A stretch of 53,485 nucleotides of DNA, taken from contig NW_014569512.1 in the NCBI RefSeq assembly GCF_000743755.1, positions 1 through 53,485 on the forward strand. Reading direction: 5' to 3'. The stretch comes from Blastocystis sp. subtype 4. Taxonomy: Eukaryota. The notes beneath the pieces were generated by a model. The model ran no database searches and was not told where the DNA came from. It worked only from the letters and a program-made list of their open reading frames with translations. Shown piece after piece: positions 1 to 46,771 of the stretch. The position numbers and the translations under genes are program-made. Each line of letters opens with the position of its first letter. Position 1 is the stretch's first letter.

Positions 1-3000
1 AATCGTTCTCTCATTATCGCATCTGTTGAATATTGAGGAAGATCCAACTGAAAGAAACATGTATGAGCCACAGGAAGCATCTCATCTCCTGATGAACAGT
101 AATTCAACTTGAATGGTCGTGACCAAGTATTCCCCTTCGGCAATCGTGATCTTCCCCATGTAAACCGTAAGAATTGGGTTCGATCCTTACTTGATAATCC
201 TCCCATCACTCTCCAAAATCGCTGAACCACTTCATGTTCCTCTGTCCATCCAGCATACACTGTATGCAATCGCAATATGTCCAGATTCACTTCAGGCATT
301 CCTTTCACAGCTCGTTCTAACTGCTCCCATGTGAACAATGATAAGGCTCGCTGAGGTACCAATGCGTACACTCCTGCAGCTACTGCTTCAGCAGCCTGCT
401 TGCTCTCATTCAACCTGAAATCCAAAGCAAGCTCATAGAATCGCATTCTGTTTTCAAAGGTCACAGCCACTTGACTGCCAGAAGGAATCAATTCTACCTC
501 ATTCCCTGCACTGTCTTGAATGCTGAACATCAGACCAAAGAGATATTGGAAGTCTTCACGACCATCACTCTCCTGATACTCCTTCACCTGACGAAGAGTA
601 TTCATGAACCCTGAGTCCACAGCTTCCACATCCTCCACTGTGATCTTATCACCAACAATGGTCTTCCAGAAGAAGGATGACAGTTCAATTGACATGAGTT
701 GTTTGGTACGTAACGAAATACCAATCAGATTGCCTACAAAAGTGTACCTAATCATCATTTCATTCTCTCATCATTACATGGCCACAGCATCGGATGAATC
801 ACGATATTTCGGATTCGCTACAAATCGTTCTTCCTCATTCCCATTCTCTTCTTGCGAATTAGGACATGGAATGAATAAGTCAATTCGATCACTGAACAGA
901 TCTTCCACACTACAACTCATTCTCCTCTTCCTTCCTTACCATCGTTCAATTGTATCTCGATACAACCCACCCCAATCCAAACCCTGTTCTCCTTTGTATT
1001 TCACAGAGAGGAGACGTTCACGAGCATCCAGAGGAGCACGCATTACTTCCACTTTGTACTTTCTCATCTGTCGGAAGAGTTGGGCGAATGTACACTGACT
1101 GGTGCTAGCATTGGCACCCTCTGAATTCGTTCCTCCATGTAACTGAAGTTCACTCCGTTCCATGTCTGTGTAAACACGACGATTATCCAATTCAACAATA
1201 GGATAAGCATCCTTTCCATGGTAAGTCGTTTGTGTGATGGATAATTCCAAGAAGTTCTCCTTCACAGAAGGGAAAATGTATCCTGTGAGAAGACTTAAGT
1301 ACATTCCCAAAGTATTCGAACTGCTATATCGTGAAGTACCCACTTCTACCAAATGAACAACACGATTAAGCTGTGAATTGTAATATTGAATTAGAGCAAG
1401 TCTGTATCTGACTTCTCGATCAGAGAATGAAGATAAGGCATAGAACCGAGCTCGATCGTCTTCATTCAGTGTTAGTTGACTCACATCATACAATAGCATT
1501 GGCATTCGACTTTTGGACGCTTTCTGTTCTAGCAAACCAAGGAGCTGCAGATCTAACTTTCGTGAACACCTTCGATAGGTCTCAACTATTTCAACTTCAC
1601 TCTGTAGATCCCATGATCGACCAGCAATCAGTACAGCTCGTTTCAGATAAGGAAGAGGAGGTAAAGATTGGAAGAAGAAGCAATAAGTGAGAAGATAAAC
1701 AGTATCAATTGAAGCCTTCAAATCCTCTCCAATATCTATCACATCAGGAACAAAAGACGGAATGGAAGAAGATTTGGTATCTTCAATCTTCAACTTCTCT
1801 AACTGATCATTGTTCTGATAAGAACATAAAAATTCAAGCAAGAGAGGAAGTTGAGCAGGAACAATAGATTGTCGATCTAATCCCTCACAGAAGTGCATCA
1901 CCACATCGTACATGTGTCTATGAATCACTCATCACACTATCACTTACTGAATATTGGGAAGCTGGATATGCGTAAGAGCTCCTGAACCACGTAACTTGAT
2001 CAACAGTTCGACAACGCGTGATTTGAATGGCATTCCACTAGATCGGAGATATTCGATCAGATGACTAAGAGCCATGTTTAGGAATGATGAATCAGTTTGA
2101 CCTCCACATTTGATTATCTCCAGTACTAACTCCAATGCAAAGCAACTCCAATCAAAACAGGAAGCTTCAAGAACATCAATGTCGCCATTCCACCGAACAT
2201 GCTCAAATGGTTGGATGACAAATGCATAACCCCAAGAAGGAGCCGCTTTACTACTGCTCTCAAAGAGATATCGCAGGGTATTTCCACGTACAGTGAACGC
2301 ACAGAAGGCAGATCCTTCACCTGTGAATCGTGCAATGATCTCAGCATGATCATCATCACGGAAAAAAGTGAGTGAAGCATACTTACTATCTAAACTGCAT
2401 CGTTTATCAAATACAACACGTAAACCAGCTACTCCCTGAACTGTGACTTTATCATAGTATTTGGATTTCCCAAAAACTGGATGAATTGACATTACTGTGT
2501 AACGCCCTCGATCTTCGGATGCTAACTGAATCGATGAAACATTTGTAGAATGAGAATGAAGTGGTCGAATCGAGTCTGCTCGACGATAGGAGACCGAATG
2601 CGTATCAGCAGTATTCCCTTGTTGTCCCCAAGCATCTTCCTTCAACACATCTAATAGTTCCTTCCTTCGTGAACTTGTCAGACAGAGTTGCTTCACACAA
2701 CCCTTTAAAATCTTGAAGAGACAACTCACAAGAGTGACATAGTTATGCTTTGATGGATTTAGTATCTGATTGTTCATATGGGCTACATAAGTATATTGAG
2801 TGAACAACACGACATCTGTTGCATCTAAGGACCAAGCTTCTAGAGCATCAACGTGATTCTTATGAAGATAATACAGAAGACAAATAAGCAATTCACGAAC
2901 ATATTTCATACTCAATACTGCACAGATTCGACCTGTTACACCTCGGAATAATTTCACATTACCGAGATAGTATAACAATCGATACTTGTGAAGTGAGACT

Positions 3001-6000: not shown

Positions 6001-8998
6001 CAAGAAGGAAAAGACGTGATGCTTGAGGGAATGAGTGAAGGAGAGAGAGGAAGTGAGATGCTTCTTCAAATATATCACGTTTGTTCTGTGCATTTTCACT
6101 ACGTCGCTGAAGACTTTCAGTCAAATGCTTGCATGTCACAGTTGTTGACATAAGCAAATACTTCTTCACACAAATAAGAATCAAGTCTTCTCGTGATTCT
6201 GGTACTACACCCTTCTCTTCAATAATCACACTGCTGTTTCGAGTGAGAGAAGCAATGATTTGTTTTCGATCAATCTGGAGTTGGGCATCTTCAGCCATTC
6301 CATTCTCCTCATCCTTCAGAACATCCCAAGGCTGGTTCAGAGACATCAATAAGTCCAGTTTCTGAAGCAACTGGTCCAGATAATCTTCATAATTGGACGT
6401 AAATAGCAATTCCCGTTCTTCTTGATCTGGCATCTCATGTAACTCCCCATGCAGGTTTGTTGGGATTCGTTCAAATGACACAGGTTCCTTTTCCGATGGT
6501 GCATCTGTACCTGCAAATGACATTAGTTTCTGAATCCGCTGCTTTCGCTCAGACGGCAAGGAACGCAGATTCAGATCCGATTTCCGGGAATCCAGTCGAA
6601 GCTGGGTACTGTCGCTACGAATGAACTGACTACTGCTGAGACGGCGAATTGGCATCATTGTTTGAGAAATACCTTGATTGAATCCAAGACCTGAATGAGA
6701 TGCAAATTCCTGTTTCTTCTTTCGTAAATGTTCACGAAGATTGATAACTTGTCTCCATAGAAGCCCTAGAACTGCAGGAACAGGTAGAAGAGAATCATGA
6801 GACTCTACTTCCTAAGTTTGTTCATTCACTCTTACCAACAAGCTTCTCATACGACTGAAGTAACAGTTCTTCTTGACCACACAAATACACCAACACAGCA
6901 AACACTTTCATTTCCACACTCACATGAATAGGTTGCCGTTTCCTTCTCCAGGCAGGCTCAGGATAATGAGAATCCATCCATCGATGAATACTCTCATACT
7001 CACTCAATGCATTCTCGTAAACAGCATGAATGAATTGAATAGGACGAGATTGATGAGTGTTCTTCTCAGCAAGACCACCACTGAAGACATAACTCTCCAG
7101 AAGACAACGTATATCTTCCCGTGGTTCCACATAGTTCAAATGTAGACAGGAGAAGTGATATTTGGTTGTGGTAGTTACAAGGAGATTGAGAATGGTGATA
7201 TGCCATGGTGGGGAGAAAGCAATCGTGTGATACAAAGGATTATAAATATTGGCTGTGAGTACATCTTCCTTACTCTGGATGATAGCATGCTACCAATGAC
7301 ACATCTATTCAATTCCTACATCAACACCACAGAGTAACATCAATGAACACCAAGCTTGGGTTAGCTCCATTAAGTCAGTTCGAAGATTGGCTGCTATATG
7401 AAGAGAGTAATGACCCATATAAAGAATTGAAAGCACATATGGAAGCAATACATCCAAAGGTGTAGCTGTAAGTGATGTTAGGACTGTTGGTTGAGCAGAT
7501 GGGAGAGTGGTAATGGCTGATTGAGCACTACTTACGATCCGAATGCACAGAGGAAGCAACTGCATCAAATAACCTTCAAGGATCTCTGACTCAGTTCGAA
7601 CTCCAGCAGTATCACCTTCAGCTTGGGAGAGGAGATAAATTTGAAATGGAAACAAAACTTCATGGAGGAGACGATGACAAATCCGAGAAGGAACATACGA
7701 AGTAACATATTTCTTACTGTTGAAATAATTTAGAATATCCTTCTCAATGACAGTAAGAAGAGTGTTCAGACTACGTAATGACTGACCAGCAAATGCTTCT
7801 ATTTCTCATTCTCAATCCATTCAACGACCATCCATTCGACTGTCTGCCTCGTAGTCAGGAAGTAGATTCACCAAATCATCGGCTGGGAGACACTCTAACA
7901 GACGATAACGGTCTCGAGATGAACCTCGTAAGAGATAATGAGGAACATATCGACTCCAATATGTCTCAGAACACTCCATAAACCCTCCAAGTGGAACATA
8001 ATCATCCTTCTGCATAGGATTCACTCTACAATGAATAGAATCCTTAACATCTACTCCACTACATCATAACAATAATCAGCGCCATAACGATAGACATTAT
8101 CTTCACCACTGTCCCAATGAATGCATACCTAAGCATTACCAAACTTTGTCAAACTAACTCCTTGGTCTTTGTTTCCTTTCCATTCTTTTCGTCGAATCAC
8201 GGTTCCTTCACCCCCATTTCCCTGATTTCCCCACTGCCAATCAGGTCCTCGAATAACTCGATCTCCAGGGTTCAAAAGAGGATACAAAACTAAACGTTAA
8301 GAGAATTTAATACTAAAACAGTTCTTCTCCTCTTCGTAGATGTCATGATATGGACAGTATTCCAAATGGGGAACAACCCTAACAGTTATCATCTCCATCT
8401 AACTTTACCCGCAGGTGCAACATGTTAGACTCCCAGGATAAGCTGGTTTAAGAGAGGCATGATGCACTTGAGCGGAACGCAAAATTCTATTATAAATGAT
8501 AAGAAGAGAATAATACCGTTGTAGAAACAAAAAGACTGCATTACGAAGCAAAAAGACTTCTTCATATGGAGAGGATGTATGAACTAATATAGAGAGTTCC
8601 TATCATTTACGACAAGCATGAAATGAAACCTGAAAGGCCGCAAGTTCATATTTGCTATCATTTTTCTGTTGGATCGCTCCAGAACTCGCCCTGAGCACAA
8701 AATTCTTGACACTTTCACAATCTATTACATAAGACACGAAATAGCCAAGTTTTACATTCTTTTCGTTCATTTTCTGGTAGCCGTATTTTTTGTTCATTTC
8801 CTAATCGAATGGAACTTCCTGTTCTGAAAATGGCTGAGAATGGAGGGATATCCGACAAGAGTCGTCGAGGAACAGATACTAAAAAGTTTGCAGAACAGCG
8901 TTCCTATAAAATCAAGAAATAAAAACACAAATCACATAAAACCATCCTTCCCCTCCAATGCAGTCATAATCATCACTTGCTGGAGTTTCTATCGGCAT
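1..8998 (-). CDS. Giant HECT E3 ubiquitin ligase with N-terminal MIB/HERC2 domain (multi-exon; 3' end runs off the window)
   Basis: C-terminal HECT: KYKGEQGLDWGGLYRD...FLRFTWGRSRLP...LPVAHTCFFQLDLPQYS with catalytic Cys near nt 57-62. N-terminal PGDRVIRGPDWQWGNQ...WDSGEDNVYRYGADYCYDV (~8055-8270) is the MIB/HERC2 signature. The minus-strand ORFs join through ~25-34 nt GT-AG introns back to ATG at 8998. Confidence 0.9.
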
Positions 8999-9108
8999 AT
9001 GAGATGATTTGTAACTCTAAACTGAAACAAATGACTATGAATGATGGATGTGGAATCGTGGAAACAAGTTGATTGAAACAAATATTAGCAATATAGAGTA
9101 CAAGAACT

Positions 9109-10592
9109 CTAGAATAGTCGAAAAAAAGTTTCAAATCCTCCTCCATCTACATTATCATGACAAGAAATCTCATACTAGTACACGATATTGATACAGATGA
9201 ATGAAATGGGCGATGTGAAAATGAGATATTTTGCGAGGAGATTTGGGGAGTGTTGAGAATGACAACAGAGTCCATATAGCAGAGGGAATTAAACCCACAT
9301 TGAAAAGAATGTAAAAATGGTAAATCTATAATGAAGAAAACTGTGAATCCGAACTAGAAAGTGAAAAGAGGTTATAACAACCAAGTAACTGTTTGAACCT
9401 GTCTTGTTGATCCAATCCTTTTAGTGAATTATCATGAATCGATATCTCTGTCAACATGGGAAGATCTACAAATCAGTCTCACTTTCATTCTTTACTTTCA
9501 AACGAAACGACAGTAGCACATACAAAAGATCCAGAACCAATATTTACCCCTTCTAATCGAGGTAAATCTAGATAACAACGTCATTGCTTTCCTACTTTCA
9601 ATAACAAGTCTCCAACAACTCACAAACGCTGTATTACCAATAAATATACGATTGAGTTGTGGGCAACAGGAGATTGAAAACATATTGTAGTTGGTAAGCG
9701 AATGATTCCCAATCTGAAGAAGGCGCAAGTTTGGGAGGTAGGACAGAGTTAGTGCTAGTGGGCTTTGCGTAGTTCCTGGCTCACCACTGACCATACAATA
9801 ATCACCAATCACAATTTGTTCTAATTTCCAGATCTGGTGAATGTGAATACTAAAAAAATAAGCTCCAGAATAATTGTCAAATAGGATTTGTTTGGTTAAC
9901 GACAACAGATTGGTCACTTCGGTGTCTTGTGGGACCACACGACAGATCTCAGAAAACAAATTGGAATCGTAGATCCATTCACCCTCATATTCCTTCTCGC
10001 CATGTCGATTAAAGAAACGTCCCATCCCAAAGTGTTCTCCATTATAGATCATTCCTTCGTAATACAAAAGTTGTGTTTCGAGGTGACAATGGTAATAGAT
10101 CCCATAACAGACATCACAAGAGGAGAGACGAAAGCCCTCAAAGAGTAAGTGATTGTCTTCATCATAGTAACAACCCCATCCACAAGGAGAGGCATCGCAA
10201 ACAGTTCCATCCCAGCGTTCACCAGTATTGTAGTCATCAAGAATATCTTTCGAAAGAGATGACATATCCTTTGAATAGACTATGGTTCCTCGATTCGCGA
10301 TGTAAACAGCTGAAAGGGTTCGAGTCTGAAGATTGGCCACAACAATTTGACCATGAATGACACCATCTCTCCAGCTCACCTGAACAACAAAAGGAAATTT
10401 GGAAATGACACAATGTCCATGGGGTTGAAAATGATTGTTAAACGATACAAAAGCATAATCTAATGGGATTTGCACTTTGTCTCCAACCTTGAAATACCAA
10501 CCACTTTCCGCCAACTCTTCTTCTCGCAATAAGAGTCGTTGATGCTTCTCTTGAATCTCAACATACTCTTCCCCGCAAGTATTTCGTTTCAT
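9109..10592 (-). CDS. MORN-like repeat plus leucine-rich repeat protein
   Basis: GERWDG..PCGWGCYYD, YYEGMIYNGEHFGMGRFF, EYEGEW (MORN-like), followed by LPxLxxIxIGxxSF/L repeats continuing through short introns to TAG at 9109-9111. Confidence 0.65.
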
Positions 10593-20117: not shown

Positions 20118-21328
20118 ATGTTTTCACTTGCAGTGGCTAAAACAACGTAGGATGCAGAAGTTATTGGTTACATTTTCAGGTTGCTTCGAAGTGCATCAGC
20201 GATTCGATGGGCTCCTTTTGTTCGTAATCTCTTTATTAGTGTGAAGGAGACTCCAAATCCCGACGTTCAGAAGTTTCTCCCTACTCCTCCTATCACTGTT
20301 CTTCCTGCAGAATTTGGTCATACCATGGTGCGGAACTCCAGTCGGATGTGACATTTAGGAGTTCAATAATGAAAAAGAAGCGCGACAATCTCCTTTAGCG
20401 AGCAAGCTGTTCGAAATTCCGGAAGTGAGTTCCGTTCTTTTCGGAGATCAGTATATTTGTGTAACACGCAAAGTGAGGGCATCCTTGAAGCTTCATTTCT
20501 AGGATGGTGTAGATTGGGAATATATCAATCCCGCAGTCTTTCATGTCGTTTTAGATATATCCTCCAAGGCAGATTCATTAGTTTCGTTCATGACACTTCT
20601 TTTCTACGAAGGAACCCCAACCTATTGTTCTCCGTCCTGAGGACATTCCAGAGGATCCAAACGATGTTAAGGAGACAGACAGTGAAGTTGTCAAATTGAT
20701 TAAAGAGCTTCTTGGTACTCGTATTCGTCCTCGTATAAAAGCGGATGGAGGTGACATCTTTTTCCAGGGTTTTGATGATGCTTCGGGTGTTGTGAAAGTG
20801 AAGGTGAGTTTATGGAAGGAATGTGATGGGTAGTTGACTGGAGCTTGTAAGGGATGTGCAAGCAGTAGTGTGACATTAAAACAGGGTGTAGAACAGATGA
20901 TGAAGCACTACATTCCAGAAGTCAAAAGTGTGGAGAGTGTAGAAGATCCCGATACTCCCGAAGTGAAAGCAGCCAAGGAGAAGGCAGAGAAGGAGCTTCG
21001 AAAGGATTTCGAAGACGAATTGGCGGCAGCGATCGCTGATGAAATGAAGAAGATGAAAAAACGTAGGTATGGTTGTTCTGATTCTCGATGATGATTTCTT
21101 TGGTGATTGATGGCTCCGGCATTCTACTGCGAGAGAACGACTAAGAATTGTTTTGTCTGCTGGAATGCGATAGAATTGCATTAATAGGCGTGATTATCCC
21201 AAAGTATGGGATATTCGAGATTTCGTAATGCGACATTGTATAAATCTGGGAGCAAGTATGATATCACAAAGGCGAATCTGAGAGATAATGAGTTTTGTGT
21301 ATTCTTCTTATCCATGTTAGGAAGTTAA
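20118..21328 (+). CDS. NFU1: NFU1 iron-sulfur cluster scaffold/carrier with probable MRO targeting peptide
   Basis: [75 protein letters not shown]. Contains an AT-AC intron (20557-20596) and a probable 258-nt last intron (21063-21320) giving ...KKRS-TAA. The unspliced alternative stops at 21091. Confidence 0.9.
20557..20596 (+). other. U12-type AT-AC intron (40 nt)
   Basis: ATATCCTC...TTCATGAC-AC; removing it restores VVLD|FFSTKEP in frame. Confidence 0.85.
21083..21285 (+). ncRNA. Composite box C/D + H/ACA scaRNA-like guide RNA (U85-type architecture), intronic
   Basis: Terminal stem TCTC/GAGA; box C ATGATGA 21088-21094; D' TTGA 21107-21110; two hairpins separated by box H ATAGAA 21170-21175; ACA 21233-21235; box D CTGA 21278-21281; antisense elements to U5 snRNA loop 1. 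Confidence 0.8.
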
Positions 21329-33293: not shown

Positions 33294-34584
<1,291 letters not shown>

Positions 34585-34625
34585 GTGGTTTTGTTTTTTG
34601 TTTGTACCTCACAAAATGAAGTAGA

Positions 34626-34934
34626 GACAGTGAAATGATAGTAGTAGACGTATGTCACATACAAATTGGCAGTTGAATAAGAACGGTGTCCTGTTTATCT
34701 TCTAGCATTACTGTTGCGTTCAGTAAGATGCATTATACCAAGTTCAAGTAGCAGTCAATCACTTCTGAAATGTACTAAATGATCATATCAAGGACATCCA
34801 ATCTTGTTCATTTGGTTTATTGAAGATAATAATAAGCACATTCACCGTTATCTTAATGACATACCCATGTTGGTGACAGTTTGCTTGGTTAATAATTTGT
34901 ACGTGACATACGTCAACTACTTACTACTACTGTC
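34626..34934. repeat. Imperfect long inverted repeat enclosing ~310 nt (candidate structured ncRNA or MITE)
   Basis: GTAGTAGACGTATGTCACATACAAATT (34641-34667) versus the reverse complement at ~34894-34920 shows 2 mismatches in 27 nt. Nested inner stems are also present. Confidence 0.75.
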
Positions 34935-35154
34935 GAAATGAATCAACAAATATAGGGAAGAACAATAAAGTAATATAGGAAAATTATTGGTTTAGCCAGA
35001 ACTATGAGATTACCGATTCACCAATAATCTATCCGTATTCTAAATGATTGGTTAAACAAAACTCGACCTATGAAATTGCCTCCCTTTTGAACCGCGGCTT
35101 TTGAATGAAACGAGTTTCAGATTTCTCTTTACATTTGGAACCTTTATTGCAAAT

Positions 35155-35653
35155 ATGGTAAGTTTTGATTCCTTAGTGCGGTGTTGAGAGAACAACGGAG
35201 AATCGTACTTATTGTGTGTAGTCAGGAAAAGGAGGAAAAGGAGGAAAGGGAGGAAAGGCCCCTTCAAGCAAGAAGCAAGTGATGACCCGTTCGACCAAGG
35301 CTGGTCTTCAGTTCCCTGTCGGTCGTATTCACAGATTCCTGAAGAGCCGTGTGTCTGCTCGTCAACGTGTGGGAGCTACTGCTGCTGTATACATTGCTGC
35401 CATTCTAGAGTATCTGAGTGCTGAGGTACTGGAGTTGGCTGGAAACGCTTCTAAGGATCTGAAGGTGAAACGTATTACTCCCCGTCATCTTCAACTCGCC
35501 ATTCGTGGAGACGAGGAATTGGATACTCTTGTAAAGGCTACGATTGCTGGAGGAGGTGTTGTTCCTTACATTCAGCCTACTCTCATTGGAAAGAACGGTG
35601 AAGAGGATGAGGAGAAGGAGCTGGAAATTGAGGAGCAAGAGGATGTTGAATAA
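35155..35653 (+). CDS. H2AZ: Histone variant H2A.Z with acidic C-terminal tail
   Basis: ATG, 64-nt intron, then SGKGGKGGK...[66 protein letters not shown]. Confidence 0.95.
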
Positions 35654-35704
35654 GCCATGTATTTATGAATACAGTGGAGGATTGTTTGTTACAACAAGAA
35701 GTCA

Positions 35705-36310
35705 ATGAGCGATATCTCGCTTCGAGCACTTGCATCGACAGTGGAGGAAAGGAAGTTTGATCCTACAACTCATCTACTATTTGTTGCTCTACTAGATGGT
35801 GTCGGATACATAGGATCGAATCACCTAAAGGACAGATCTCTAAAGGACAACATTCGTGATGATATGAGCGTTCACAACGAAGACATTTCACTAGCGGAGA
35901 GGCTAAAGTCTCGTTCTTCTTACAAAGTGAACACGAATGACGTGGACATATGTGAGTCATTTCACCACAACATTCTTTTTGTTTGTGATAGTATTTCCGA
36001 CAGGATTCAACTGAACATTGTATTAAATGTTGATCGATGTCATACTCCTTACAATGAAAGCATCTATGCTGATTCGTTGATATCCACCTTCAGATCCTAC
36101 AACACCTTTTTGACAATCAGGACAAAGCCAAGGTTCACCTTGAGCAATGACAGCATTAACACTACGAATAATAGAAATGACGAAACTCAACCATTCGTGA
36201 TGAAAGAAGCGCTTGCAGTCACCAGTGCATTGAATCAAGGATCCTGAGAGCAGACACTCGCAACACCGTTCTACAGTCGACTCTTGAAGGCGTTGCTTCT
36301 TTGATTCCAT
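35705..36310 (-). CDS. Small protein made of three tandem NSD/EDM2-type PHD fingers
   Basis: CCEC..LIQCTGDCKRFFHHEC..WLCPDC; HRCFHC..LIQCSVESCRKYYH..C..ICPRHSCSLC..LVKCLRCERSYHHECC..LCIRH after splicing. Confidence 0.8.
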
Positions 36311-36375
36311 GTCCTACGGTGTTCGCTGAATCTACTTTTACTCTTGAATAGTGTTGTTTTAGATAATTAACAGTA

Positions 36376-36448
36376 GCCCACATAGCTCAGTCGGTAGAGC
36401 GTTAGGCTTTTAACTTAACGGTCTGGGGTTCGAGCCCCCATGTGGGCG
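36376..36448 (+). tRNA. tRNA-Lys(UUU)
   Basis: Acceptor stem GCCCACA/TGTGGGC, D arm TAGCTCAGTCGGTAGAGC, anticodon loop CTTTTAA, T loop GGTTCGAGCC, followed by T runs. Confidence 0.97.
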
Positions 36449-36475
36449 TTTCTTTTCATTCTTTTTCGTTCATAA

Positions 36476-40693: not shown

Positions 40694-41022
40694 CGAAAAA
40701 ATGGATCATTCGAGGAAATGGAATTGATTATTATAAGTCACTGGACGGTTACTAGTAATGTCGTTTAATTTCGCTTATTTCTTCCTATTTGGGGTTCGGT
40801 ACCAGTGATATTGATGTAAGAATGTAGTTAAAACCGAACCGACGAAGATCATCGTTATGGGTTATGCATAATGATCTATGGACTCCAACCATCTCTACTG
40901 TAAACAAGCAGTAAGAATAGAGAAGATAAATGAAGGATATGGCCCAAAATAGAATAGATTTGGCTATTTATTCATATTTCTGTACCAAGCTCGTTGTTGC
41001 TCAATTTCTCCATCTTTTTCCC

Positions 41023-44040: not shown

Positions 44041-44409
44041 GTCCAATTAGGATGAATATGAGTGGCTTTTCATTAGTTGTATTTCGACAAATAGAAGTGA
44101 TTTAAATCAATACACTCAATTGCACGCAAAGATTCCTTATAAATGCTGATTCGTATGAATATATCGAATTATGATGACTTCTCCTAATAATCCGTTTCAA
44201 AATGTGTAGAGAGAATGATCCGAACGGTTCTTCTCTTCCTTATGGACAATCATGCTATCTGCAAGAATTGAAGTATCAAGCAATATCGGAAACCGATTCA
44301 ATGAACCAAATAGATTGCAGTCAAACTGGTGAATTATCACCAATTCTGCAGTGGAGAGAGGTACAGACGTCATTGCATGACTAATGACGTCATTTATTGT
44401 CTCTCTTTT

Positions 44410-46771
44410 ATGGGTTGCTCTAGTAGTCGCATTACTCCAACCTTCCAATATGCATCCACTCTCCCCAATACAGAAGATGTGGAACATGGATTGGTAGAAG
44501 TCTATTCGGTTCTTCACTGCTAGGGAGCTATTTATCGTGCTATAGGATACGAAGACCACTTTAAGTGTACAATCAATGACGATATTCATACCTTTCCTGA
44601 TCTCTATGCGTTTGTACTTTTCGACCCTTTTACTCTAGTTTTGGATCCAAGAGAAATCCAGGTGCAGCATTTCTAGGGTATCGTCCCAATAATCAGGGTG
44701 TTATAGGGGACTATGAATGGATAACGTAGCCAATTGTTGGATAATGAAGTATTAGGTATGAAGAATGTACGAAAGCTATCGAGGCCTACTCGCGTGCCTT
44801 GGTGAAGTATGATCTGTTGTCAGTGACAGATGGAACAAAGAAACGGTCTGATGGAACTCCAGTTAAGATATATGTCTATTTTCATCAATAGATGAGAACA
44901 ATTGGGCATTTCTTAAGGAATTGTCCAACTGCTGTTATCTCCCAGTATGGTGTTTGGAGGGTAAATGGTACGGTTGTGACTCTGTACGACACTCTGGGTC
45001 CTGAAGCTCTTGCGTAGGAATCGAGGAAGAGGTTCATTGGTAGGACGATTGTAAGTGAGGCAGAGTTGAAGACTGTTGTCTGTACTCCCGCTTCCGGTAT
45101 GATGTTATTGCGCTGTTTGGATACGGACCCAGAGAGATTTAGTTTTATCAAGAATTTGATTATTGTAGGAATTCTGAAATGAGTTGAGAATAGGATGGAA
45201 CAATTTCAGAGGAGTTAATGAGTATGGGAGAGCGTTATCAGGTTCGACTGTATTGTTTTGAAGAGTTGGTGAAGGAAGGTGCTTCGTTGCCTGAGGTTGA
45301 AACATCTCTCTTGACTCCAGAAGATATGTGTATGATTTGTTACACATCGGGTACTACAGGGGTTCCGAAGGGGGCATTGCTAACCCATGGAAATATGATT
45401 GCTGTGTCGACAGCAGTGGTTCAGTACATTGATACCATCGGAGGTCTGACGAATGAAGATATTCATATGTCGTATCTCCCAATGGCTCATGTTTTTGAGC
45501 ACTTTGTGCAGTCTGCTATTGTCTACTACGGAGCGCGAATTGGGTTCTATCAAGGAGACACGACAAAGTTAGTGGATGACATTTTGCATCTGCGACCTAC
45601 GATTTTCCCATCAGTTCCTCGACTATTGAACCGAATTACAGACAGTATCTTTGCTAAGGTTCGGAAGCAGAGTGGTATAGTTCAGATGTTGTTTAGCAAA
45701 GGATTTGAAACGAAAGTAGGGGATGGATAGCTGCTTGAAGGATAGAAGTATAATCTTCTTCACGAGAATCGTTTGGATCATCCTGTCTATGACAAATTGG
45801 TTTTCAAGAAGATTTGTTCTGTTATTGGACTGGATCGACTCAAGTTTATTGTCACCGGGTCGGCTCCAATCACAGATGATTGTTTAATTGCCTTGCGTGT
45901 GATTATGGGATGTCCCGTGATCCAGGGATTAGGACTCACAGAGACTGGAGGAGGTATTTGCTGCTCTTATTTCCAAGATAATTGTACTGTGGGTCATTGT
46001 GGAGGTATTATTTGTTGTGGTGAGGCTCGAGTATGTATGATAAGGATGAATGAACTGTAGTTGGTATCTGTTCCTGAAATGGGATACTCAATTACTGATA
46101 CCTATCATGGAAGAGAGGTAGCTGCTGATGGTACAGTGATTCAACCTGGAATTGAATGCAGAGGAAGAGGAGAAGCATGCTTTCGTGGTTGTAACATCAT
46201 TCAAGGTTACTACAAGCGTCCCGAGATCAATAAGGTTGTATTTGATTCGGAGGGTTGGTTCCATTCCGGCGATATTGCAATGTGGCTACCTAATGGCGCT
46301 ATTCAAGTTATTGATCGAAAGAAGGATATCTTTAAGTTGGCACAAGGAGAATACATTTCTCCGGATAAGGTGACAGCTGTATATCAAGAATGTCCTGTTG
46401 TATCTTCAGTCTTTGTGTATGGTGATTCGTACCAGTCCTTCCTGGTGGCGATTGTCGTTCCTGAAGAGAGTGAGTTGCGAAAGGCACTACGAGAACGAGG
46501 AATGGATGAGGCGGACTCGGATTTTGGTAATATGTGCAAGAGTGATGCTGTGCGGGCAGTAGTGTTTGAGGAGATGAGTAAGGTTGCTAACAGCAGTAAG
46601 CTTATGGGTTTCGAGAAGGTGAAAAATGTGTACTGTGATTCAGATCCATGGACTGTCGAGAATGGCATGTTGACTCCCACCATGAAGTTGAAGAGGGATT
46701 ACAGCAAGAATCACTACAAGGGAGTGATTGACCAGTTGTACAAGGAGGGAATGATGAAGATTAAGCAGTAG
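44410..46771 (+). CDS. Long-chain acyl-CoA synthetase
   Basis: ICYTSGTTGVPKGALLTHGN, SYLPMAHVFE, QGLGLTET, GWFHSGDI, IDRKKDIFKLAQGEYISP, LTPTMKLKR; N-terminus MGCSSSR. Confidence 0.95.

Follow-up and report, generated by a model that had tools for sequence, protein, structure and literature searches.

Locus and neighbouring genes

The window analysed here is the whole stretch of 53,485 nucleotides of a Blastocystis sp. subtype 4 contig (NW_014569512.1). Between an NDP-sugar 4,6-dehydratase gene and a histone H2A gene it holds a non-coding fold-back element of 309 nt, laid out as follows.

33908..34590, plus strand: 3′ part of the NDP-sugar 4,6-dehydratase gene, from contig evidence, spliced, with introns of 29 and 30 nt
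34626..34667, no strand assigned: left arm of the fold-back, with the outer GACAGT at 34626-34631 and the core at 34640-34667
34632..34636, plus strand: left copy of GAAAT, candidate 5-bp target-site duplication
34637..34934, no strand assigned: extent of the element (298 bp) under a transposon model, its 11-nt termini agreeing at 10/11 positions
34668..34893, no strand assigned: interior, 226 nt, non-coding, 35% GC, folding at chance level, free of T4 and A4 runs
34682..34849, minus strand: RNase P/MRP-like echo, a 7-bp helix of 34849-34843 with 34688-34682, its 3′ strand preceded by ACAGGA (34694-34689)
34894..34934, no strand assigned: right arm of the fold-back, with the core at 34894-34921 and the outer ACTGTC at 34929-34934
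34935..34939, plus strand: right copy of GAAAT, candidate 5-bp target-site duplication
34986..35051, no strand assigned: three CCAAT boxes (34986, 35021 and 35047) of the H2A.Z promoter, outside the element
35134..35678, plus strand: histone H2A gene, with a 64-nt first intron and an A-tail after 35678

Evidence on transcripts came from run X10, which is presumed to be RNA and was apparently selected for A-tails. Its contigs skip the dehydratase-gene introns of 29 and 30 nt and carry an A-tail after 34590; the element begins 35 nt further on. A TGTTTGT-type motif lies 3′ of this A-tail. The short introns, this motif and the samples in which this DNA occurs (mouse gut, mouse and wastewater) fit a Blastocystis subtype of about 40% GC. 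On the other side, the H2A contigs of the same run extend back to 35134, and the gene itself reads from its sequence as probably of the H2A.Z type. The A-tail and the start of the H2A contigs therefore leave a gap of about 543 nt, the left part of which is occupied by the element. With the H2A.Z leader and first intron included the gap measures 661 nt; the first-pass annotation had called it the largest non-coding gap of the window, which is doubtful, as 8910-9678 (769 nt) ranks higher in a rough coding-potential scan. Over the element, run X10 gave no contig across 34632-34814 and one 181-nt contig (depth 2.1) over 34840-35020 that extends beyond the element's end; given the apparent A-tail selection, neither was counted for or against expression. 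In human-associated Blastocystis, almost all introns measure 30 bp and the median intergenic length is 137-186 bp (PMC12129017).

A search of metagenome contigs with the H2A.Z gene as query returned 80 loci, 2 of which were close (L001 at 100% and L008 at 98%). L001 contains a second H2A.Z copy, behind which lie a similar PHD-type gene and the same tRNA, while L008 is a higher-GC, more distant relative with a different upstream gene standing head-to-head to H2A.Z. The duplicated block of H2A.Z, PHD-finger gene and tRNA spans 35217-36460 in the window and 654-2625 in L001; the two H2A.Z copies are 91% identical, and both are present as A-tailed contigs in run X10. When the window was scanned with Rfam at gathering level, the tRNA (36376-36448) was the sole match. 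Upstream in L001, a stop-interrupted fragment at 125-202 (plus strand) resembles a gene that we read from its motifs as CDP-alcohol phosphotransferase-like (46% over 26 aa, E 0.025). In L008 this gene is intact and stands head-to-head with H2A.Z on its upstream side, and the L001 fragment, oppositely oriented, is possibly a decayed, inverted copy of it.

The three CCAAT boxes lie at -236, -201 and -175 from H2A exon 2. Upstream of the second H2A.Z copy in L001 they recur at -251, -216 and -190, with their order kept and their spacing nearly so; since they are kept at the second copy, the boxes belong to the histone promoter. AAACCAATAA, located 50 nt upstream of the element on the minus strand, is one of the three boxes common to L001, and for this reason we rejected it as a candidate upstream sequence element (USE).

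Terminal inverted repeat and folding

The arms at 34640-34667 and 34894-34921 form an inverted repeat of 28 nt that is 93% complementary, with a spacing of 226 nt and a core of 21 unbroken pairs, one of them G-U on the minus strand. With a score of 22, it is the top local inverted repeat of the window (runner-up, 15), and in third-order Markov simulations of the window the best score was 12-15 in 25/25 cases. The terminal inverted repeat is real and far above chance. The repeat of 27 nt with 2 mismatches reported in the first-pass annotation was thus recovered, as was its outer GACAGT/ACTGTC extension; with the extension, the arms measure 42 and 41 nt and match at 34/43 columns. On the left, the boundary of the element is blurred because its flank (34613-34650) consists of an imperfect tandem duplication in which AAATGAAGTAGAGAC is followed by AAATGATAGTAGTAGAC. 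The GC content of the element (35%) is that of other non-coding gaps (34-44%). No long open frame was found in any of the six frames, and a coding signal was also absent. A spliced micro-gene was considered and rejected: GT-AG-like pairs exist, without a reading frame. Arm motifs recurring inside the interior, tried as sub-terminal repeats or as a DIRS-type internal complementary region, amount to 8- and 6-nt matches that we estimate to be at chance level.

As a whole, the 309-nt element folds more stably than its shuffled counterparts on both strands (z -5.37, MFE -88.6 on plus; z -5.29, MFE -85.5 on minus). When the arms were removed, the signal was gone: the 226-nt interior gave z -0.45 on plus and -0.04 to -0.05 on minus. 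The whole folding signal stems from the terminal stem; folding both strands, as had been proposed, returned z of about -5.3 on each but no strand preference and no signal beyond that stem. The hairpins named in the first-pass annotation are present, and so are its nested helices (AACGGTG at 34682-34688 with CACCGTT at 34843-34849, and TTATCTTC at 34695-34702 with GAAGATAA at 34822-34829), but the helices only at the level of chance, the 3 perfect helices of at least 7 bp in the interior being equalled in 60/200 shuffles. A sub-window chosen post hoc, 34675-34860, reached z -2.14 on plus and not on minus.

The minus-strand G-U bias did not hold up, with confident G-U pairs at 6/88 on plus and 5/83 on minus; the claim comes down to one transition in the core stem. 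The nested helices and the G-U bias, cited earlier as specific signs of structural selection on a minus-strand RNA, are both at chance level. Runs of T4 or A4 are absent from the gap over 363 nt, the longest such stretch among 17 gaps; 300-nt windows without A4 on one strand are common in this DNA (198/532).

Copy number and searches for known RNAs

The element was single-copy at 80% likeness in 3/3 assemblies covering the region (runs X2, X3 and X4, from 2 samples). A single 30-kb contig spans it in runs X2 and X3, which come from one sample, possibly that of the window itself, and two abutting contigs cover it in run X4. As positive controls, the search recovered a 52-nt piece carrying 10 differences and the second H2A.Z copy, which has 38 differences over 394 nt; some records were filtered, and copies with only 30-40-nt ends in common could escape. 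No sequence difference was seen inside the element across the 7 runs touching it. Contigs were compared from 8/13 runs (X1, X5, X8, X9 and X13 left out), of which X12 had no coverage of the region. Of the two outcomes foreseen for a copy-number check, the dispersed copies expected on the transposon side did not appear, and a single copy was to support a non-coding RNA if joined by covariation.

Upstream of H2A.Z in L001 and L008 the element is absent, with no alignment above shuffles, and the CCAAT boxes are what is common. These two loci are not orthologous empty sites, because the dehydratase gene is not their upstream neighbour. No orthologue from another subtype was found among the metagenome loci anchored on H2A.Z, and querying prokaryote genomes with the dehydratase gene gave 4 distant prokaryotic loci and no orthologous site. 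The arm pattern had 0 matches in viral contigs, and the best phage blastn hit to the element had an E of only about 4. A 13-mer of the CR-V-like site discussed below matched 2/84 loci with 1-2 mismatches, which we take as chance. Our literature search found no prior description of the element.

The first-pass annotation had offered RNase P/MRP, SRP and telomerase RNA as identities and proposed Rfam as the check. Searching 651 or 241 nt around the element at E up to 10 gave nothing meaningful, P, MRP and SRP included, and the telomerase family was not matched either. According to Fajkus et al. (PMC8287931), the USE of Blastocystis reads AACCCRTAA and its telomere unit CCCTAA, and each Blastocystis subtype examined there has a telomerase RNA candidate. 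By the template definition of that source (a permutation of CCCTAA plus one base), no template was found on either strand of 34500-35100, even at 6 nt. No USE lies near the element; the window has three exact sites to this consensus, which derives from another subtype (PMC8287931), the nearest at 40863. The SRP helix-8 SRP54-binding motif was likewise absent from the element, so the earlier remark that telomere template and helix-8 motif are both missing was borne out by motif search. Tested by their defining features, the SRP, telomerase RNA and canonical RNase P/MRP identities failed. C box, B box, Sm site and U17 motifs, also searched for, were absent from the element, and U3, U17 and C/D snoRNA were rejected because their motifs are missing. 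A sigma-70 scan came out at chance and is irrelevant to a eukaryote.

Several other sites of the window were noted along the way. On the minus strand at 44416-44205, an exact USE, AACCCATAA (44416-44408), is directly followed by two hairpins within a 390-nt non-coding gap. The hairpins (44310-44410) fold at z -5.8 on minus and -4.6 on plus (60 shuffles), have no Rfam match and begin nearer the USE than a transcript normally would; this site, with a promoter motif that the main element lacks, may be the better small-RNA candidate. At 40863 (minus), a gap of 328 nt that precedes a gene holds a second exact USE with a GGTTCGGT/ACCGAACC inverted repeat behind it; the folding there is at chance overall. 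At 8375-8383, AACCCTAAC is a 9-nt telomere-template-like match that has no exact USE upstream and may be coding; a 120-nt window near it, at 8403, gave z -5.4 from only 20 shuffles. Another 120-nt window (21137-21256), in a 600-nt gap, gave z -4.2, also from only 20 shuffles.

Interpretation and comparison with known systems

We tentatively read the element as the solitary remnant of a small MITE-like cut-and-paste DNA insertion, the explanation we favour while rating it somewhat below an even chance. A second register of the ends bears on this reading: GATAGTAGTAG (34637) matches the complement of 34924-34934 at 10/11 positions, and GAAAT abuts both termini on the outside. This flush 5-bp repeat had been missed when the first-pass annotation listed a MITE as an option. 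Flush repeats of at least 5 occur in 0.2% of random position pairs (0.002), with 19 registers qualifying, 3 of them in the outer set; as a candidate target-site duplication, the repeat is suggestive, not decisive. The register comes at a price. It requires about 10 extra nt in the right arm, inside its AGT repeats, and it makes the outer GACAGT/ACTGTC match, of about equal size, coincidental. In favour of the MITE-like reading we counted the arms, the flush GAAAT, the chance-level interior, the missing strand preference, the background GC, the lack of an Rfam match, a USE and a telomere template, and the absence of the element upstream of H2A.Z in L001 and L008, together with the 4.2-6.7% share of transposable elements given for human isolates of Blastocystis in PMC12129017.

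The steps could have been as follows. A transposase supplied in trans would have recognised termini of about 31 bp and placed the element between genes, at one of the few sites where a compact genome tolerates an insertion, duplicating 5 bp. Slippage in the AGT repeats of the right arm would afterwards have added about 10 nt there, and siblings of the element would have been lost or never fixed, such a genome leaving little room for insertions. What folding programs draw as a fold-back would then be a side effect of terminal repeats in the DNA, and the element likely has no structured-RNA function.

MITEs are described as short, non-coding and bounded by terminal repeats (PMC8969392), which the size, interior and ends of the element fit. 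Among the features of the class, the element shows terminal inverted repeats and a length of 298-309 bp (0.05-1 kb for the class) without coding capacity; dispersed genome copies are lacking, and we place it in no MITE family. Any siblings should still be recognisable, the arms being 93% alike, so the single copy counts against the MITE-like reading, which thus gained the flush repeat and lost the dispersed copies. The 363 nt free of T4 and A4 runs, longer than in any of the 16 other gaps, also count against it. To our knowledge, the termini match no nameable transposon superfamily, and the literature search found no occurrence of an AGTAGT terminal motif. Polinton-type termini were rejected, as a flush 6-bp repeat is missing and the literature search gave no such motif.

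Somewhat less probable, though still a serious contender, is a local inverted duplication, in which a template switch during replication, or a rearrangement, made an inverted copy of about 40 nt and the arms have decayed since, without any function. It would be placed at a synteny breakpoint beside the duplicated H2A.Z-PHD-tRNA block: the element lies just outside the stretch common to the window and L001, and the three H2A.Z loci show three different upstream neighbourhoods. The single copy and the unstructured interior with its background GC agree with such an event, and arms of 42 and 41 nt align without the large indel that the transposon model requires. The flush GAAAT repeat is left unexplained, and template switches usually span less than 226 nt, which counts against this origin. 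A local inverted duplication accounts better than a MITE-like insertion for the single copy, and less well for the flush repeat.

A further reading, which appears unlikely, is a non-coding RNA of about 300 nt, single-copy and uncatalogued, whose minus-strand transcription would lead away from the H2A.Z promoter. It would be transcribed by Pol III or by divergent Pol II from the CCAAT boxes, with the 40-bp stem protecting its ends and the loose interior serving as scaffold or guide. The single copy agrees with it, and so does the lone transition mismatch of the core stem, which is G-U on the minus strand (n=1). The signals named in the first-pass annotation are where they were said to be, TATATTT at 34954-34948 and a T4 run at 34616-34613 on the minus strand, so that in this direction a TATA-like site precedes the element by 14-20 nt and a T4 run follows it after 9 nt; no T4 is internal, within the 363-nt run-free stretch. 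The head-to-head upstream gene in L008 further suggests that the H2A.Z promoter can be bidirectional. Against such an RNA stand the chance-level interior, without strand bias or elevated GC, and the lack of a USE, Sm site, C box, B box or Rfam match; the run-free stretch loses weight given how common 300-nt stretches without A4 on one strand are.

That the minus strand encodes a strongly divergent RNase P or MRP RNA is very improbable. This strand does allow a P1-P2-P4-P7-P19-like order: P1 would be the terminal stem, P2 the pairing ACCAAG/CUUGGU, P4 the 7-bp helix, which crosses P2, P7 a helix of 8-9 bp directly following P4, and P19 the hairpin at 34704-34730. Helices of 7 bp with ACNNRA before their 3′ strand and a G at the conserved place arose in 0.5% of 2000 shuffles, a figure from a descriptor that uses a CR-V consensus and was drawn up after the sequence had been seen. 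Such P4/CR-V-like sites number 3 on both strands of the window, that of the element included, and once P2- and P7-like helices are added, 4/10,652 overlapping windows pass, one of them that of the element. By the same consensus, the first 11 positions of CR-V match on minus and the closing UA is displaced by 2 nt. The CR-I/CR-V echo noted in the first-pass annotation is therefore a real and uncommon likeness as far as P4 and CR-V go, but the catalytic residues of CR-I are missing. A P1 of 40 bp and a link of 10 nt after CR-V are unusual for RNase P/MRP RNA.

The catalytic details weigh further against such an RNA. The GAA of CR-I is an RNase P feature (PMC2996960) and a U is conserved in P4 (PMC10966300); the element has neither the GAA in the 5′ strand of P4 nor a bulged U at the conserved place. 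In PMC13184271, CR-IV starts with AG and counts 8 nt in P and 6 nt in MRP, and P8 of MRP has a GARAR pentaloop. GARAR loops are absent on both strands, and no AG-started CR-IV stands before the 3′ strand of P2: AG....A occurs on minus only at positions 4, 7 and 235, and none precedes the P2-like strand at 193 as a CR-IV. No Rfam P or MRP match appeared at E 10 in 651 or 241 nt. The missing USE does not speak against MRP, as Blastocystis MRP promoters are without USE (PMC8287931). Two older surveys found no P RNA in heterokonts (PMC2996960, 0/6; PMC1636426). A literature search joining Blastocystis with RNase MRP found nothing. A later survey (Lechner 2015) may have altered this picture of heterokonts. 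There is only a slim chance of a single-copy minus-strand RNA with a 40-bp closing stem, a P/MRP-type pseudoknot and remodelled catalytic residues, be it a stramenopile nuclear RNase P RNA missed earlier or an RNA derived from P/MRP that has taken on a new, non-catalytic role.

The readings differ in what they would mean. On the MITE-like reading the element is an ordinary kind of sequence that matters little, useful at most for marking DNA transposition at low copy number where a protist genome is very compact. An RNA gene of whatever kind, in all rather unlikely, would mean that a common gut eukaryote has a 300-nt RNA not yet catalogued; one derived from P/MRP would bear on the drift of the ribozyme catalytic core and on RNA-based nuclear RNase P in stramenopiles.

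Among known systems, eukaryotic SRP RNA is similar in its roughly 300 nt and in the long rod that folding programs draw for the element, which differs in lacking the helix-8 motif, a USE and an Rfam SRP match. The Blastocystis telomerase RNA candidate described in PMC8287931 has a similar size class and a single-copy intergenic setting, but it carries a USE and a CCCTAA template, neither of which occurs in 34500-35100. Eukaryotic RNase P/MRP RNAs (PMC13184271, PMC10966300 and PMC2996960) resemble the element in their roughly 300 nt, paired ends, P4-like helix with a CR-V-like 3′ strand and possible crossing P2, whereas the element is without CR-I GAA or bulged U, CR-IV, GARAR and a covariance-model match, and its P1 is much longer. 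From MITEs and other non-autonomous TIR DNA transposons (PMC8969392) it is set apart by its one copy, the lack of a visible partner transposase and of a superfamily, and arms that differ by 10 nt; it is like them in its 0.3 kb, its non-coding sequence, its terminal inverted repeats and its candidate flush target-site duplication.
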